Of a stretch of DNA of 64,000 nucleotides, positions 55,728 to 62,097 are shown piece by piece. Position 1 is the stretch's first letter. Every line of letters begins with the position of its first letter. The stretch is from Gammaproteobacteria bacterium. GTDB taxonomy: Bacteria; Pseudomonadota; Gammaproteobacteria; Eutrophobiales; Eutrophobiaceae. Under the pieces are notes generated by a model that saw only the letters and a program-made list of their open reading frames with translations, was not told the origin of the DNA and ran no database searches. A program made the position numbers and the translations under genes. The stretch covers positions 4,932-68,931 of the forward strand of contig JAPOQU010000095.1 in NCBI GenBank assembly GCA_026710545.1, in the 5' to 3' direction.

Positions 55728-55736
55728 CCACTACAT

Positions 55737-55761
55737 GGGGACGGAATTAAATTCCGTCCCC
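55737..55761. repeat. GGGGACGGAATTAAATTCCGTCCCC palindrome (GGGGAC family)
   Basis: Read directly, immediately downstream of the hydrolase stop. Confidence 0.85.
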
Positions 55762-55781
55762 AGTCTGGTGAGATATACGGT

Positions 55782-55990
55782 CTAGTAGGTGTAACGCAGG
55801 CTTACTCCATAACGGCGCGGCTTCTCAAAGGACTGCTCGTCCGAGCCATCGACAATCGCCAGGTCGAACGCGCTGTTCTGGGCTCGGCTGTCGGTGAAGT
55901 TCCTGACAAAACCGGTCACCTGCCAATGGTTATCGGGGCTGTACCAGGTGATGCTGGTATTTCCAATCCAGTTGGAGGGCAGCCTGTGGC
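55782..55990 (-). pseudogene. C-terminal fragment of a TonB-dependent receptor
   Basis: My minus-strand translation ends ...NTSITWYSPDNHWQVTGFVRNFTDSRAQNSAFDLAIVDGSDEQSFEKPRRYGVSLRYTY*. These are typical last beta-strands. No plug or upstream barrel is present, and the upper boundary is approximate. Confidence 0.6.
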
Positions 55991-56148
55991 TGTCGAAACA
56001 GTATCTCGTTTGTGACCTTTCCCGCAGCCGTCTTGTAGGTCAGTTCAAGCGCCTCGGAACCGAACCAGCGAACGTTGACTACGGTGACGGTCTCATTGGA
56101 AAGAATGCCTTCGACCGTGCTGTTGGCCTGGAGGTCTTCGAGTTTCAT
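55930..56148 (-). pseudogene. orphan N-terminal gene fragment running into the TBDR fragment in another frame
   Basis: 72-aa ORF: MKLEDLQANSTVEGILSNETVTVVNVRWFGSEALELTYKTAAGKVTNEILFR... The pattern recalls, from memory, the small N-terminal beta domain of some large defence-island helicases. This is unverified. Confidence 0.3.
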
Positions 56149-56285
56149 GTCGTTTTTACTGTTGCCATTATCATCGTCACGAGTGCATTCTAGTCTTTAA
56201 TGGAGTAGCATGAAACCTGACGCAGTGAGCGGCATGACGCTGTAAACAGTGTTGAACAATCAAACCACGATTTCGGGACGGAAAT

Positions 56286-57920
56286 ATGAGTGATTACATG
56301 AACGAAGGGTCGCTCGAACTTGAAGTGACTGATTTCGGGCCGATCATTCAGGCTAATATCGAGTTGCGTCCTTTCACGGTCTTCGTTGGTCCGAGCAACA
56401 CCGGGAAATCCTGGATGGCTGTCCTGAGTTACGCGTTGCACCGGTATTTCAGTGAAGCGAAGAGACTGGAACCTCTTCGCCCTGATCAGATCTGGCGAGC
56501 CCTGTATACCGGCGGTACGAATGGACCAGACCAGGGGCGCCGTGAGGCTCGAATATCCAGAAAACACGAAGACGTTCTATCCAGCGCGCCGGTTGATGCT
56601 CTTCTTACCTGGGCAAAGCAGGAGCTCAGTGATGGGACCCGAATGCACGATTTGTTTGGAAACAGTCAAACACCACCTGACCAGAAGTCTTTTGTTATTC
56701 CTGAGCAGATTACAGAACCGGTTCAATGGATATTCAACACACAAGGTGGCCCTCTTGGTCACGAAATTCGCAGGTGCTTTGGCGTCGACGGTATTGACAG
56801 ACTGGTTCGAAAATCAAGTAGAACCGGGGCGCAGGTTGCTATTCGCCGTCATTTCTCAGACGATACACAACCTCTTGAGCATAGGCTGACGATCAGGTCA
56901 CAAAAAACGATCTTTGAAACAATGGTGCCTGAGGGTATTGGATTTCCAGGAGATCGTTACTTTGAACTTAAGGAACAATTCAGTGAACTTATTAGTCACC
57001 TTTCTGATATAACACATGGCCCAGATATTGATATAAATGATCCGGAAATCCGAAGCTCTTGCTGGCCCTTGATCAGTACTATAGCCGACTTCATCAAGCC
57101 TTATCTCTTCGGCCCATTAAATCTTCGCGCTTTCTATCTCCCCGCCGACCGAACCGGAGTGATGCATGCGCATAGAGTGGTCGTCAGCGCGCTGATCGAA
57201 GGAGCAACGATGGCTGGTGTGCGCCCAGCTGCGCGCGCGCCCATGCTGTCGGGCGTGCTGGCGGATTTTCTTGAACAACTGATTGAAATCGACCGACCTC
57301 CATACCGGCATGAGGAATCCTGGAACTGTCATGCCGCACAGATCGAAAAAGCGATTTTAGAGGGCTCGGTGCGTGTAGACTGGGCGGCTACAACAGGCTA
57401 CCCTCGCTTCACTTATCAGCCGACAGGATGGAAAGACGAACTGCCGCTATTAAATGCCTCCTCCATGGTGTCGGAACTGGCGCCGGTGGTGTTATACCTG
57501 CGCCACAGGATCAGACCCGGTAATCTGCTGATAGTTGAGGAACCGGAGTCTCACCTCCACCCGGGTATGCAGGTCGAATTCATACGCCAGCTTGCGGCGT
57601 TGGTTAAATCGGGCGTCAGGGTACTTATTACCACACACAGTGAATGGGTGCTTGAGGAACTCGCGAACATAGTGCGGCGTTCCCGACTTCCTTCTGGCGA
57701 GCGGGATAAGCTGGAACACGGAGATTGTGCGCTACGCCCCGACCAGGTGGGGGCATGGTTATTCAAGAAGAAGAACCGCCCAAAGGGTTCCGTAGTGGAG
57801 GAAGTGAAACTGGATGATGAAACAGGCCTCTATCCAACCGATTACGACGAAGTAAGCGAATCGCTGTATAACGAGAGCGTAAACATATTTAATCGAATCC
57901 AGGATATTGAACACGGATGA
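56286..57920 (+). CDS. ABC/SMC-like AAA ATPase (AAA_15/AAA_21-type, as in OLD/Septu/PARIS-class defence ATPases)
   Basis: 544-aa ORF. It has Walker A GPSNTGKS near the N-terminus, a long helical insert, YLPADRTG, Walker B LLIVEEPESHLHP, and the H-loop ITTHS. Confidence 0.8.
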   Translation: MSDYMNEGSLELEVTDFGPIIQANIELRPFTVFVGPSNTGKSWMAVLSYALHRYFSEAKRLEPLRPDQIWRALYTGGTNGPDQGRREARISRKHEDVLSSAPVDALLTWAKQELSDGTRMHDLFGNSQTPPDQKSFVIPEQITEPVQWIFNTQGGPLGHEIRRCFGVDGIDRLVRKSSRTGAQVAIRRHFSDDTQPLEHRLTIRSQKTIFETMVPEGIGFPGDRYFELKEQFSELISHLSDITHGPDIDINDPEIRSSCWPLISTIADFIKPYLFGPLNLRAFYLPADRTGVMHAHRVVVSALIEGATMAGVRPAARAPMLSGVLADFLEQLIEIDRPPYRHEESWNCHAAQIEKAILEGSVRVDWAATTGYPRFTYQPTGWKDELPLLNASSMVSELAPVVLYLRHRIRPGNLLIVEEPESHLHPGMQVEFIRQLAALVKSGVRVLITTHSEWVLEELANIVRRSRLPSGERDKLEHGDCALRPDQVGAWLFKKKNRPKGSVVEEVKLDDETGLYPTDYDEVSESLYNESVNIFNRIQDIEHG

Positions 57921-58387
57921 AGGGACGTGTAAGGGGATTGTCTCGTACAGTTCCTGATTGCTGCAGCGCTGACCGCTGCGATAGAGATGGTTGCAAGATG
58001 AGCTTGGTTGGCGCGCCGCCAAAGCGCGTCGTGATTGATATGGATTGCCGGAATCATCAAGTTCAGGATGATCAAAATCGATGTGATTACCTGTTTATCG
58101 GCGAAGAAAATAACACCAGGTGGGTAGCGCCCATCGAGTTGAAGAGCGGTAGGGTGAAGAGCGTTACTGCCGTCAGGAAGCAGCTCGAAGGTGGCGCGAA
58201 AGCTGCGGACGACTGGCTCAAAAAAAGCATTCCGTTTCAATTTATTCCGGTTTTAGTACATGGCAAGACTATCCAAAAAAATGACCTCAGGAGGCTTCGT
58301 TCTGAAATAATCCAGTTGCGCGGCAAGAGGAGAAGAATCGCCCTTTTAAAGTGTGGCGACCAACTGGCAAAAGCGTTCCGACCATGA
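57917..58387 (+). CDS. small Cys-rich protein with a PD-(D/E)xK-like core
   Basis: 156-aa ORF with an ATGA overlap with the ATPase. The N-terminus has CCSADRCDRDGC, followed by RCDYLFIGEENNTRWVAPIELKSG (a D...ExK arrangement like Hjc/NucS-type nucleases). Confidence 0.45.
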   Translation: MKGRVRGLSRTVPDCCSADRCDRDGCKMSLVGAPPKRVVIDMDCRNHQVQDDQNRCDYLFIGEENNTRWVAPIELKSGRVKSVTAVRKQLEGGAKAADDWLKKSIPFQFIPVLVHGKTIQKNDLRRLRSEIIQLRGKRRRIALLKCGDQLAKAFRP

Positions 58388-58473
58388 CACAGACAGCCTT
58401 AAAGAAACCTGAACTGCTGTCCGACGCGTAATAATTTACCTCGCTGTAACCATGATTGCACTCTGATCCAAAA

Positions 58474-58628
58474 CAGGTGGCTTAACAGTGATTGTGATAG
58501 CACGCAATCTAGAACACCCATAAATTTATGTTGTCCTGATTCTCTATTTTATGGGTGTCCCAAATTAAGAAATCGATCGAGTCTGACCCCATTGATTCGA
58601 ACAAGTGGCTTAGCGGCGATTATGATAG
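58474..58628. repeat. 27-bp imperfect direct repeats (58474-58500 / 58602-58628) flanking an 11-bp-stem hairpin (58514-58558)
   Basis: CAGGTGGCTTAACAGTGATTGTGATAG versus CAAGTGGCTTAGCGGCGATTATGATAG. The hairpin is ACACCCATAAA-N23-TTTATGGGTGT. Confidence 0.65.
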
Positions 58629-58672
58629 GATATTTATAGTCAGCCTAACAACGCTCAGTAACAGGACAACCC

Positions 58673-59515
58673 ATGAAATACGTCGAACCCACCAGCCTGT
58701 CCGAAGCGCTTGAGATTCTTGCGGGCGACGACGAGGCCCGTTGTCTCGCCGGCGGCGCCACCCTGGTGGCCATGCTGAATGCGGACCTGGTTGAGCCTTC
58801 GACGCTTATCGGACTGCGCCGTATCGATGAACTTGCCGGTATTACGGCAACTGGTGATCAATTACGTATCGGCGCCATGACGACCCACGCGCAGATTGCC
58901 GTGGATGGCAGGCTGACGGGCAACGCGGCCGTCGTCAGGGATGCCGCAAGGCAGATAGCCCATCCGGCAATCCGTAACATGGGCACCATCGGCGGGGCGA
59001 TCTGCCACGCCGATCCAAATGCCGACTTTCCCGGCGCCCTGGTCGCAGCCAATGCCGTGCTGGTAGCGGCCGGTCAGTCGGGGACAAGACAGATCCCGGC
59101 TGATGAATTTTTCCTGGACTACCTGGAAACTTCCCTGGAAGAGGACGAGATCCTCAGCGCAGTGATGCTACCCGTTGAGCCTTCCGGCGCCGGGGCCAGA
59201 CACCTTAAATTCAGCCGTACCCACGGCGATTACGCCACTGTTTCCATCTCCCTGGTGCTGGTCTTGGATGCAGGCGCATGCAGTTACGCCAGGGTGGCGG
59301 TCGGTTCGGTGGGTCCGACACCCTTGCACCTGACCGAAGTAGATGAAATTCTGACGGGTTCGGACCTGGCCGGGGAGACAATCAGGCAGGCAGGCCGGAA
59401 ACTGATGGAGGCCGCCGACCCTGTCGATGACGTGCGCGGCAGTGCAGAGTACCGGCGCATGATCATCCCGGGACTGTTGCAGCGGGCCGTGGACGAACTG
59501 CGGGAAGTTGGGTGA
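58673..59515 (+). CDS. FAD-binding medium subunit (CoxM-like, set 2)
   Basis: 280-aa ORF with Y..P.SL.EAL and LAGG.TLV blocks. Confidence 0.85.
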   Translation: MKYVEPTSLSEALEILAGDDEARCLAGGATLVAMLNADLVEPSTLIGLRRIDELAGITATGDQLRIGAMTTHAQIAVDGRLTGNAAVVRDAARQIAHPAIRNMGTIGGAICHADPNADFPGALVAANAVLVAAGQSGTRQIPADEFFLDYLETSLEEDEILSAVMLPVEPSGAGARHLKFSRTHGDYATVSISLVLVLDAGACSYARVAVGSVGPTPLHLTEVDEILTGSDLAGETIRQAGRKLMEAADPVDDVRGSAEYRRMIIPGLLQRAVDELREVG

Positions 59516-59554
59516 GCGAAATATTGAATTCGAAGTCGTCGTACTGCCGTAAAA

Positions 59555-59638
59555 CGTCATTCTGGCGGAAGCCAGAATCCAGCGAATCCACGCGGCTGCA
59601 TGTCATTCCACTGGATTCTGGCTTCCGCCAGAATGACG
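59555..59638. repeat. 84-bp composite palindrome of the REP-like family (copy 4)
   Basis: CGTCATTCTGGCGGAAGCCAGAATCC...GGATTCTGGCTTCCGCCAGAATGACG. Each arm itself contains a TTCTGGC-GGAA-GCCAGAA hairpin. Confidence 0.85.
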
Positions 59639-59688
59639 ACTTAAACCTGGATGACGACTTAACCCTGAATGACGGCTTAAACCTGAAT
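59632..59688 (+). repeat. 18-bp tandem repeat x3 (AATGACGACTTAAACCTG-like)
   Basis: Units lie at 59632, 59650 and 59668. The first unit overlaps the end of the palindrome. Confidence 0.85.
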
Positions 59689-59694
59689 TATGGT

Positions 59695-62097
59695 GTGAGC
59701 CGGCGGAAATTTTTGAAACAGACCGGAGGGCTGACCTTTTGCTTCGCCTTTGCCGGTTTTTTCGGTAACGGCGGCACATATGCTGCCGAGTCGAACCCTA
59801 CTCCGGGGCCGGCGATGGCCGAGTTCAACGCCTACGTACGCATTTCTCCCGACGGGACGGTGACCATTATCAATCCCGCTGCGGAAATGGGGCAGGGCGT
59901 CATGACTGCCCTGCCCGTCATCGTCGCGGAGGAACTGGACGTGGAATGGGATGACGTGCGCATTGAATCCTCCCCGCCCATCGGCGAGGTCTATGGCGAT
60001 CCCCTGTTCTTCAACAGGATTTTTACCACCTCCAGCAGAACAGTCGCCAATTACTATGAGCGCCTGCGCAGGTTCGGCCGTGACGCGCGACAGGTGTTGC
60101 TGGAAAACGCCGCGGGGAAATGGGGCGTACCCGTAGCGGAATTGAGGACCGCGCCCAGCCTGGTCATACACGACAAATCCGGACGCAGTATCAGTTACGG
60201 CGAGATCGCCGCGTTCGCGCATATCTCCGCTGACAGCGCCGCCCCGGGAGAGACCCCTGGCGAGATTGGCGCATCCGCGGGAACCCTTGACAACCAACCG
60301 ATTCAGTTCAAGGCCAGGGAAAATTATCGGCTGGTGGGCAGGAACGTCCCCCGCCGGGACCTGCCCGGGAAAGTTACCGGAACGGCGCAATACAGCATGG
60401 ACGCCCGGCCTGCGGGTATGGTTTACGCTGCGGTATCCAGGGCGCCCGTTGAAGGCGCTGCCTTGCGCGCCGTCAATGAACGCGACGCGCGCAGTATCAG
60501 CGGCATTATTGACGTGATCAAACGGTCTGAATCCGTAGCGGTCGTCGCCACCAGCTATCCGGCTGCCCTGAAAGCACGCGACAGGCTTGAAATCTCCTGG
60601 CATGAAGTGGAAGGCATGAGCCACTTCAACAGCGACGAATCGATGCAGGAACACCGAGCGGCGGCGCGGGACCTGTCACGGAACGGTTTTCCCTGGGACG
60701 TACAGGGTGACATTACCTCGCTGGAGCGGGGACAGAATGCCCTCGAACCGGGTACTCTACGAGACACGCAGGGTGACGTTGCCGCACCGGGTCGGGGACA
60801 GGTTGCCCTTGAGCCGAGGGTTTCACGGGATGCGCAGGATGATATGTCTACACCGGCGGACGAAGCAACACGGGTCTGTTCGGCAGAATACTGGACGGAT
60901 TACGTCTACCACGCGCAGATGGAACCGCTGAACGCGGTGGTGTCGGTCACCGACGCCGGAAAGAAAGCCGAGGTCTGGGCAGGGACCCAGGCGCCGGCAA
61001 ATACAGTCGACGCGGTTGCCAAAATCCTGGATATCCCCGGGAACGACGTCAAACTCAACCGCTCCCTGCTGGGCGGAGGGTTTGGCCGGCGCACTGTGCC
61101 CTCTATGGATTTCGTAGTCGATGCGGCCTGGCTGTCGAAGCTGCTACGGCGACCGGTGAAAGTGGTCTGGACCCGGGAGGATGACCTCCGCAGCGGGCAC
61201 CTCAAGCCCATGACGGCCCATTTCCTGCGCGCCGCGGTCGACGACCAGGGTAAAATCTGCGCGTGGCAGCATCGGGTGGCCAGTGATGAGGCCATCAAAC
61301 TGCTGGACCGGCCCAGTTACGAGGCATTCGGCAAAGTCCCCATCACGTCCATGCTGGGTTCTTCACATCACGGCATGGATCGTTCCATCGGCGACGCCTA
61401 CGACCTGCCCCAACGCCTGGTCGAGCATATTCCCATGGACACGGGTGTACGCCTCTATCCCGTGCGCGGCGTGGGCGCGACACCCAACAACCTGGCCATC
61501 GAATCCTTTCTGGATGAAATAGCCGCGCAGCGAAACATCGATCCCGTTGACCTTCGCCTGCGGCTCCTGCATAAGTCGGCACGCGGCAGGCGCATTATCG
61601 AGACCGTTGCCGGGATGGCCGATTGGACACGTGCGCGGCCGGGTCGTGCGCTTGGCATTGCCTATACCCACTACGTGGATACCGTCGCCGCGGCGATAGC
61701 CGAGATTTCCTGTGATCACACGAGTGAAAAAATCATCGTCCACAACGTCTGGATTGCAGCCGATGTCGGCCTGGCCATCCAGCCCGACAACGTCAGGGCG
61801 CAACTGGAGGGCGCTATGATCCACGGCCTGGGTTATGCCCTGTCGGAACGCGTCACCATCAGAAACGGTTTGATACAACAACGTAATTTCCATGATTACT
61901 CCGTTATGCGGATGGCGGACGCGCCGGTTATCCATGTAGAACTGCTGCACAGCGACAGTGCGCCCACCGGCGTGGGTGAAACCGGCTCAATCCTGGCGCC
62001 GGCAACCGTGGCCAATGCCTTTGCCGTACTGACCGGCAAGCGCCTGCGCCATATACCGTTTACTCCGGACAGGATCCGGCAAGTATTGCGTACCTGA
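59695..62097 (+). CDS. molybdopterin-binding oxidoreductase, IorB / aldehyde-oxidase beta-subunit-like, with Tat signal (set 2)
   Basis: A GTG at 59695 gives VSRRKFLKQTGGLTFCFAFAG (twin-arginine signal). The ORF-track start at 59512 would translate the repeat elements. Confidence 0.8.
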   Translation: MSRRKFLKQTGGLTFCFAFAGFFGNGGTYAAESNPTPGPAMAEFNAYVRISPDGTVTIINPAAEMGQGVMTALPVIVAEELDVEWDDVRIESSPPIGEVYGDPLFFNRIFTTSSRTVANYYERLRRFGRDARQVLLENAAGKWGVPVAELRTAPSLVIHDKSGRSISYGEIAAFAHISADSAAPGETPGEIGASAGTLDNQPIQFKARENYRLVGRNVPRRDLPGKVTGTAQYSMDARPAGMVYAAVSRAPVEGAALRAVNERDARSISGIIDVIKRSESVAVVATSYPAALKARDRLEISWHEVEGMSHFNSDESMQEHRAAARDLSRNGFPWDVQGDITSLERGQNALEPGTLRDTQGDVAAPGRGQVALEPRVSRDAQDDMSTPADEATRVCSAEYWTDYVYHAQMEPLNAVVSVTDAGKKAEVWAGTQAPANTVDAVAKILDIPGNDVKLNRSLLGGGFGRRTVPSMDFVVDAAWLSKLLRRPVKVVWTREDDLRSGHLKPMTAHFLRAAVDDQGKICAWQHRVASDEAIKLLDRPSYEAFGKVPITSMLGSSHHGMDRSIGDAYDLPQRLVEHIPMDTGVRLYPVRGVGATPNNLAIESFLDEIAAQRNIDPVDLRLRLLHKSARGRRIIETVAGMADWTRARPGRALGIAYTHYVDTVAAAIAEISCDHTSEKIIVHNVWIAADVGLAIQPDNVRAQLEGAMIHGLGYALSERVTIRNGLIQQRNFHDYSVMRMADAPVIHVELLHSDSAPTGVGETGSILAPATVANAFAVLTGKRLRHIPFTPDRIRQVLRT

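Follow-up and report, generated by a model that had tools for sequence, protein, structure and literature searches.

An ABC ATPase and mini-nuclease gene pair in a gammaproteobacterial contig is a probable divergent relative of the WonAB and PD-T4-4 anti-phage systems

Here, two adjacent genes encoding a 544-amino-acid (aa) ATP-binding cassette (ABC) ATPase and a 156-aa nuclease-like protein are described from a 64,000-nucleotide (nt) stretch of DNA (hereafter the window) from Gammaproteobacteria bacterium assembly GCA_026710545.1 (contig JAPOQU010000095.1, positions 4,932 to 68,931). The pair is probably a two-gene module directed against phage or mobile elements and a member of the superfamily that includes WonAB, PD-T4-4, PDC-M47 and PDC-M29, an assignment made with good but not complete confidence. 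Judged by its sequence, it is a divergent, uncharacterised sub-family of an already validated kind and not a new type of system.

Both genes lie on the forward strand and begin with ATG, the ATPase gene at 56286..57920 (taken from the open reading frame (ORF) list and supported by Pfam, PADLOC and an AlphaFold2 (AF2) model) and the gene for the small, WonB-like protein at 57917..58387 (ORF list, AF2 and hhalign). Direct reading of the sequence confirmed the 4-nt ATGA overlap of stop and start codons (57917..57920) that an earlier, sequence-only reading of this DNA had described for the same two ORFs, and translational coupling of the ATPase and the small gene is predicted from it. The co-occurrence that the earlier reading had proposed as a check was found throughout: an ATPase homologue is located directly upstream and on the same strand in 80/80 genome loci, with a 4-nt overlap in 55 of the 71 loci that could be assessed and an overlap of at least 1 nt in 66 of those 71. 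The identities of the ATPase and small-protein homologues to the window pair also co-vary (Spearman rho 0.72), and the pair is inseparable across phyla and co-diverging. Compared with the syntenic relative L083 (loci carrying relatives of the pair are given L numbers), the ratio of non-synonymous to synonymous substitution rates (dN/dS) is 0.20 for the ATPase gene and 0.27 for the small gene, against 0.12 for the neighbouring coxM gene, values that point to purifying selection on both members of the pair. Relatives of the small protein are numerous; a word-indexed search recovered 70, all without annotation, and an exhaustive profile search returned ~1,500 representative clusters (50% identity) at E ≤ 1e-3 and 952 at E ≤ 1e-10. 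Almost all are ~155 aa long and can be aligned from residue 1. In public gene calls the small gene begins at Met28 and yields the 129-aa product P0001, but codons 1-27 (57917..57997, forward strand) are 93% identical to L083 with a dN/dS of 0.26; because these codons are conserved and contain the conserved cysteines of the C15/C16/C21/C26 cluster, the 156-aa reading is the correct one.

The 544-aa protein belongs to the OLD/SMC type of ABC ATPases. Its motifs, GPSNTGKS (residues 35-42), YLPADRTG (284-291), LLIVEEPESHLHP (414-426) and ITTHS (448-452), were all found as previously quoted, and when 43 homologues are aligned nearly every residue in them is invariant, including K41 of Walker A, R289 of the PADR motif, E418/E419 of Walker B and H451 of the H-loop. 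The signature motif is S392-S393, and ~350-370 aa separate Walker A from the signature/Walker B region, a minor correction to the ~330-aa insert given in the sequence-only reading. Pfam matches are to AAA_15 (7.7e-17) and AAA_21 (5.9e-12), and the protein ends in a C-terminal extension (~residues 470 to 544); the DUF3696-type C-terminus suggested as a check was not detected in the Pfam search. Among PADLOC profiles PD-T4-4_A scores best, followed by PDC-M47A, with further matches to NsnB and AriA. The AF2 model (pLDDT, predicted local distance difference test, 77; predicted template modelling score (pTM) 0.81) most resembles, in fold searches, PtuA from Septu and retron systems, with SMC heads, OLD and RecN next, and a sequence search of the PDB returned OLD and UvrA only (E ~1e-4), with the OLD nuclease nearest. 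By analogy with related systems, the ATPase is predicted to be the sensor or regulator of the pair.

The small protein contains a C15-C16-x4-C21-x4-C26 cluster followed by CDYLFI (residues 56-61) and IELKSG (73-78), the motifs noted before, although the gap between the last two is 11 residues and not the 12 previously counted. In 188 full-length members, conservation reaches at least 90% at each of C16, C26, D41, D43, C56, D57, E74, K76, G78, Q89, G93, P111 and C146 (C16 94% and C26 99%) and is 82% at C21, well beyond what chance would give. The predicted catalytic core consists of D57, E74-x-K76 and Q89, with D41/D43 upstream and C56 beside the catalytic aspartate, and C16/C21/C26/C146 probably constitute a putative structural zinc site. 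No Pfam or NCBIfam family matched the protein, a PDB sequence search with it found nothing, and PDC-M47B was the only PADLOC profile to recognise it. In the confident AF2 model (pLDDT 89.8, pTM 0.88) D57 opens a strand, E74-x-K76 ends the next strand and Q89 lies in the helix that follows, which in the model is the canonical PD-(D/E)xK order. Foldseek matches are mostly to restriction-endonuclease folds (E 0.01-0.1, template modelling scores ~0.35-0.38), among them Bse634I, N.BspD6I, FokI, NucS, SgrAI, Can2/Card1, AddB and bunyaviral endonucleases, and the viral fold library BFVD likewise gave weak matches of restriction-endonuclease type. The fold is assigned to PD-(D/E)xK because these weak matches agree in identity, with the layout of the motifs and WonB homology as further grounds; the model thus supports a divergent, miniature version of that fold, and the protein is predicted by analogy to be the effector nuclease of the pair. 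The proposal of a coupled ABC-type ATPase with a small PD-(D/E)xK-type protein is accordingly borne out by Pfam, the structural model and WonB homology.

The closest characterised counterpart is WonAB, a Vibrio cholerae system of the WASA-1 prophage reported by Adams et al. (Nat Microbiol 2025, PMC12137116), in which an OLD-type ABC ATPase is paired with a 16-kDa PD-(D/E)xK variant and which the literature relates to PD-T4-4. Defence by WonAB requires both genes, the ATPase motifs and K71 of WonB (PMC12137116). The present pair shares the two-gene operon, the OLD-type ABC ATPase and the PD-(D/E)xK variant of ~140-156 aa, and K34, R182, E300 and H333 of WonA correspond to K41, R289, E419 and H451 of the ATPase described here. 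In V. cholerae WonB the essential K71 is the IELK lysine, with RCDWIL before it and IKQL after it. Among 11 WonB sequences, taken from the supplementary table of PMC12137116 and aligned, C52, D53, E69, L70, K71, G72 and Q81 are invariant and D40 is nearly so; these residues and D40 correspond to C56, D57, E74, L75, K76, G78 and Q89 and to D41/43 of the window protein. Profile comparison by hhalign placed the small-protein family with WonB at 95.3% probability (E=2.3e-8), rising to 95.6% (E=1.2e-8) with a 188-sequence profile. With that larger profile, 13/16 WonB/PD-T4-4_B sequences outscored all 2,000 shuffled decoys, and the family hidden Markov model retrieved V. cholerae WonB itself at 2.7e-5, better than 2000 decoys. 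From this sequence evidence the small protein is concluded to be a remote WonB homologue with the same invariant catalytic set. N-terminal cysteine pairs are present in many WonB homologues too, but the four-cysteine set including C146 is conserved in the present family, and the distance from Walker A to PADR is 248 residues here compared with 148 in WonA, so that Insert 1 of the ATPase is ~100 aa longer. A further difference is that a defence phenotype was measured for WonAB, while the present family is known from genes and models alone. The published wonA/wonB quantitative PCR primers had no match in IMG/VR.

PD-T4-4 is an E. coli system of an ATPase and a PD-(D/E)xK nuclease (Vassallo et al. 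2022, PMC9519451) that is self-sufficient and resides on a mobile element, within a defence hotspot (PMC9519451). The PD-T4-4_A profile (PDLC04033) matches the window ATPase at E=2.4e-34 (117 bits) in two separate stretches, the better of which spans residues 374-536, and PD-T4-4_A shares 28% identity with it over the signature/Walker B/H-loop region and the C-terminal extension. PD-T4-4_B has the same sCD...(D/E)LKS...Q(I/L)E core as the small protein, but is ~200 aa long rather than 156 aa, and the middle of the ATPase also differs. A tblastn search of plasmids with the ATPase gave 4 distant matches only, from which reference PD-T4-4 pairs were taken; the genuine pair L081, from an E. coli plasmid, scores 3e-123 for the A protein (end to end) and 1e-43 for the B protein on the PD-T4-4 models, genuine PD-T4-4_B proteins score 1e-43 and 1e-12, and the L081 B protein cross-matches PDC-M47B. 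PDC-M47 is a defence candidate in PADLOC that originates from the guilt-by-embedding approach of Payne et al. (bioRxiv 10.1101/2024.01.29.577857), and its cassettes are embedded in larger defence systems, as the present pair is in relatives of the window. The PDC-M47A profile (PDLC04664) matches the ATPase in two stretches (E=5.4e-27, 92.8 bits), and PDC-M47B is matched by 30/41 small-protein family members (best E 1.5e-5), which match no other PADLOC family. Since WonB homology on one side and the cross-match of the L081 B protein with PDC-M47B on the other connect them, PD-T4-4, PDC-M47, PDC-M29/WonAB and the present family are regarded as one superfamily. WonB itself carries the PADLOC label PDC-M29B, a model that matches 9/11 WonB sequences, and PDC-M29A matches the window ATPase only at 1.5e-8 (residues 416-464).

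The pairing is consequently less new than it had seemed: it had not been recognised in any named system, yet the ATPase matches PD-T4-4_A and PDC-M47A, most small-protein members match PDC-M47B and hhalign links the family to WonB. Profile matches to named systems had been put forward as the test of novelty; they were largely found, and the sub-family alone remains new. Within the superfamily it forms a separate branch, given that the PD-T4-4_B and PDC-M29B models miss it and PDC-M47B matches it weakly, and PADLOC would probably miss the pair as a system call. The architecture was anticipated in the 'OLD-ABC ATPase + novel REase' operon predicted by Krishnan, Burroughs, Iyer and Aravind (NAR 2020), as cited in PMC12137116; according to the account in Adams et al., the class includes WonAB, and 0.96% of complete genomes carry it (PMC12137116). 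As that class is described in the citing paper, the likeness extends to architecture and predicted logic, and an operon of an OLD-type ABC ATPase with a small partner of restriction-endonuclease fold is what is found here, the fold matches of the partner being weak. Septu (PtuAB), PARIS (AriAB), Gabija/OLD and HEC-01/02/03 likewise place a nuclease under the control of an ABC ATPase sensor with remodelled inserts, and several of them are now reported to cleave tRNA. Their effectors are of HNH, TOPRIM, NERD or PIN type, however, and their sequence similarity to the window ATPase is limited to the Walker B/H-loop segment. Membership of Septu, PARIS or Gabija was rejected on the ground that the effector belongs to another class, no HNH or TOPRIM domain having been found in the small protein with Pfam, NCBIfam or PADLOC.

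Several results weigh against placing the pair in this superfamily or against details of that placement. Identity to WonB is ~20% and the two can be aligned in the catalytic core only; the PDC-M29B model matches neither the window protein nor any of the 41 family members, and with the PD-T4-4_B models the window protein gives no match at E ≤ 1 and 0/41 members match at E ≤ 0.01. The PDC-M47B match (PDLC04668, E=4.4e-4) aligns residues 50-93 with profile positions 70-112 of 186, about a quarter of the profile, and the PDC-M47B profiles are 174-202 positions long compared with 156 aa here. Foldseek searches of the PDB and BFVD produced no small-protein match at E ≤ 1e-3, so that the nuclease fold suggested by the sequence-only reading is upheld by the model and by the identity of the leading matches, not by a match at that threshold. 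The ATPase can be aligned with WonA and PD-T4-4_A at the Walker A end and from the signature to the C-terminus only, the ~250-aa middle being unrelated, which implies that the cue sensed may differ. Unlike prophage-borne WonAB, no relative was found on 2.9 million viral contigs, and the RNA target discussed below is a presumed one for WonAB itself too. In addition, IELKSG, PIELK and CDYLF[VI]G were absent from the examined part of Supplementary Tables 4 and 5 of PMC12137116 (RefSeq complete genomes).

The mode of action can be modelled on WonAB, whose activity blocks translation and leaves genomic DNA undegraded (PMC12137116). By analogy, ATPase activity and the nuclease lysine would both be needed; the ATPase would dimerise around two ATP sites with the nuclease held on the C-terminal extensions, and a phage cue would alter the ATPase cycle and thereby license the nuclease. 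The nuclease would then stop translation, probably by cutting tRNA or rRNA rather than DNA, and infection would be aborted; zinc, probably bound by C16/C21/C26/C146, would stabilise the small protein. The larger Insert 1 of the ATPase presumably means that a different phage cue is sensed. PD-T4-4 proteins form a complex and cut 0/11 DNA substrates in vitro. A sensor dimer controlling an RNA-cutting enzyme is the most likely model because WonAB stops translation with DNA intact and PD-T4-4 cuts no DNA.

Overproduced on its own, WonB is highly toxic, and WonB is unstable and degraded by Lon, hence scarce (PMC12137116). Many partners controlled by antitoxins behave in this way, the AAA_21 family is annotated as 'putative AbiEii toxin, Type IV TA system', and toxin-antitoxin (TA) genes adjoin the pair in locus L089. 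The pair might accordingly be a TA system in the manner of AbiEii/AAA_21 type IV modules, in which the small nuclease is a toxin that the ATPase neutralises and which stabilises the island without any sensing of phage. This is quite unlikely, as the toxicity of WonB depends on the presence of a catalytically active ATPase, which is the reverse of neutralisation, and sequestration was ruled out by the WonAB authors (PMC12137116). Moreover, all ATP-hydrolysis residues are invariant in the family, and the ATPase comes first in the 4-nt-coupled order and is more than 3 times the size of typical antitoxins. In seven loci (L018, L046, L050, L052, L061, L062 and L090) the small nuclease gene is located beside a truncated or frameshifted ATPase gene, an arrangement that fits the behaviour of WonAB, whose nuclease does no harm unless an active ATPase is present.

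The neighbourhoods of the pair are rich in defence genes, as the sequence-only reading had supposed when it spoke of a defence islet: relatives occupy dense islands with Hma, McrBC or HigBA/MazE/NYN genes. Of the gene-fragment scars mentioned in the same reading, one was confirmed. It is a 72-codon HmaA stub (55933..56148, reverse strand), identified by alignment to L083 and by PADLOC, which shares 45/60 residues with the N-terminal end of the intact 1192-aa SNF2/DEAD/NOV_C helicase of L083 and matches PADLOC HmaA at 1.6e-12; none of the remaining helicase parts is left in the window, which also lacks the rest of the Hma system that is intact in L083 and L085. The stub is a relic of the Hma system that hosts the pair in relatives. 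In L085 the order is Ppl, HmaA (E=0), ATPase, small protein, a 131-aa ORF, HmaB (E=0) and PDC-M38A/B, and the pair adjoins Hma genes in L083, L084, L086 and L090 too, the last of which has a decaying Hma and the frameshifted ATPase already mentioned. Conversely, the pair sits beside McrBC in L087 and beside HigBA, MazE and NYN genes in L089, without Hma in either. Across the 80 genome loci, HmaB-like DNA occurs within 6 kb of the pair in ~20-23 and HmaA-like DNA in ~12-16, mostly among the closest relatives of the window, and the association with Hma is recurrent but not obligatory. The 131-aa ORF of L085 belongs to a third ORF of 122-131 aa that has no family match and overlaps the stop of the small gene by 4 nt in one clade (L084 10474-10842, L085 10474-10869 and L086 5195-5590); being present in 2/80 genome loci, it is an occasional accessory outside the core. 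The L084-L087 islands also hold further pairs of an ATPase and a partner (AAA_15/21 with DUF3226 (PDC-M38) and AAA_15/21 with DUF4276) as well as Ppl, McrBC, Fic, SLFN/AlbA_2 and patatin genes, and look like a hotspot that gathers paralogous ATPase-effector modules.

Embedding in Hma was used by Payne et al. to predict defence systems, the commonest embedded family being cassettes of an ABC ATPase and a nuclease (bioRxiv 10.1101/2024.01.29.577857). The intergenic region between the HmaA stub and the ATPase start is also unusual: this divergent spacer of 137 nt (56149..56285) is ~91% identical to L083, compared with ~78% for the coding part of the pair, and no other part of the locus is as well conserved. 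A core of 33 nt within it (56184-56216, TGCATTCTAGTCTTTAATGGAGTAGCATGAAAC) is invariant in the window, L083, L089 and the distant L090, and the spacer is a candidate shared promoter or operator. That it is common to HmaA and so well conserved, together with the position of the pair between HmaA and HmaB in L085 and the recurrent proximity of Hma genes elsewhere, would suit a pair that serves as an Hma accessory, for example a back-up triggered by anti-Hma factors, and that is a functionless leftover in the window. Such a role is nevertheless unlikely. About 57 of the 80 loci have no Hma gene within 6 kb and yet both genes are intact, L087 and L089 carry the pair without Hma, and the window genes are themselves intact and under apparent purifying selection. 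Hma-embedded cassettes, including those of an ABC ATPase and a nuclease, work independently according to Payne et al. (bioRxiv 10.1101/2024.01.29.577857), and WonAB and PD-T4-4 are self-sufficient.

The window pair is intact while Hma has shrunk to a stub. The reduction of the adjacent HmaA to 72 codons, the broken ATPases of the seven loci listed above and the outcome of promoter and terminator scans, which were at chance level and revealed no sigma-70 consensus, could together indicate that the window pair is itself a decaying relic that is neither expressed nor functional any more. This is very unlikely: both ORFs are full length and keep every invariant residue of the family, dN/dS values against L083 are low, and the upstream spacer is better conserved than any other part of the locus. 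The sigma-70 scan, moreover, is uninformative for a non-enteric host.

The segment that carries the pair appears to have been gained horizontally. A composition scan gave a GC content of 0.46-0.53 across ~55750-58750 and 0.60-0.66 on both flanks, and GC at third codon positions (GC3) is 0.52-0.53 in the pair but 0.69-0.74 in neighbouring genes, confirming the AT-richer segment noted earlier; it is this difference in GC3 (0.52 against ~0.72 in neighbours) on which the conclusion of horizontal acquisition is based. Between the pair and the right-hand coxM gene lies an AT-rich spacer (58388..58672, GC 0.425, recognised by composition) that contains no ORF with homologues and can be aligned to L083, and this spacer is the right boundary of the acquired segment. 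CoxL/M/S-type molybdenum hydroxylase subunits are encoded on both flanks, with an alpha/beta hydrolase on the left. The description of an insertion that splits two molybdenum-hydroxylase clusters is correct as to the genes on either side, but over-reads the layout because only the right-hand cox junction is conserved in relatives; in the lineage of the window (L083 and L089) the left side is variable.

All 80 genome loci are from metagenome-assembled genomes, and they belong to at least 12 phyla, including Latescibacterota, Binatia, Poribacteria, Entotheonella, Gemmatimonadota, Acidobacteriota and Rhodothermales. Many of these groups, such as Poribacteria, Entotheonella, Latescibacterota and Binatia, are typical among the symbionts of marine sponges. 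The distribution is patchy and identities among relatives are at odds with taxonomy. These features bear on whether the pair could be a housekeeping module of DNA repair or recombination, in which a RecF/RecN/SbcC-like ABC ATPase would work with a structure-specific nuclease, as might be thought from the SMC, RecN and UvrA-type heads among the fold-search results, from the frequency of PD-(D/E)xK nucleases in repair and from the presence of NucS and Mus81 among the weak fold matches. A housekeeping function is extremely unlikely given this scattered occurrence, the GC3 foreign to the host, the variable, defence-rich hotspots in which the pair resides, the pseudogenisation of several copies and the fact that the closest sequence families are all defence systems. 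As for habitat, 9/12 metagenome loci come from Mediterranean sponge metagenomes (accessions LXNI, LXNJ and MKWU), and on the basis of these accessions the sub-family appears to be enriched in sponge microbiomes. The sponge origin of these loci, combined with the many phyla involved, suggests horizontal exchange within sponge microbiomes, and horizontal transfer seems to have carried the sub-type among at least 12 phyla that share marine-sponge microbiomes.

Other features of the surrounding DNA were recorded. Right behind the hydrolase stop codon is a perfect 13-nt inverted repeat (55736-55762, TGGGGACGGAATT / AATTCCGTCCCCA, 1-nt loop), likely to be a terminator hairpin or the end of a repeat element at the left edge of the low-GC segment, and a partial direct copy of the 13-nt repeat is present at 56264-56286. 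A 62-codon open frame (55785-55970, reverse strand) ends in ...PRRYGVSLRYTY* and resembles by eye the C-terminus of an outer membrane beta-barrel; its assignment as a TonB-receptor C-terminus was withdrawn, as it is unlike the TonB receptor of syntenic relatives and has no Pfam match. To the right, upstream of coxM and in the AT-rich spacer, a 19-nt inverted repeat (58506-58566, 84% complementary, 23-nt spacer) may be a regulatory site of the right-hand cox cluster. The CoxL-like ORF at 59512-62097 (forward strand) is 861 aa long, compared with only 740 aa for its L083 homologue, and has an odd N-terminal extension of low-complexity D/L/N repeats followed by a twin-arginine-like SRRKFLKQ motif near residue 65. 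Its true start probably lies further downstream, and export of the enzyme through the twin-arginine translocation (Tat) pathway may be predicted from the motif.

Tentatively, the family could be treated as a distinct sub-type of WonAB/PD-T4-4, marked by the four-cysteine (zinc) module, the ~100-aa larger Insert 1 and the Hma-embedded lifestyle. The pair reveals no new principle, as the logic of coupling a small restriction-fold nuclease to an ATPase sensor had been predicted in 2020 and was validated by work of 2022 and 2025. However, the superfamily of WonB-like mini-nucleases is far larger than current tools report, with ~1,500 clusters matching the profile of a sub-family that the PD-T4-4 and WonAB models miss, and one catalytic signature ties PD-T4-4, PDC-M47 and WonAB/PDC-M29 together. 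The window provides a natural case of an embedded cassette that has outlasted its host Hma system, and the distribution of relatives suggests a module traded across phyla in sponge microbiomes. If the nuclease does cut a specific tRNA or rRNA, the pair would be an independent and easily purified case for an emerging rule that systems with OLD-type ABC ATPases kill by cutting RNA and not DNA. Furthermore, uncultured marine bacteria would be better annotated if PADLOC or DefenseFinder included a profile of the sub-family.

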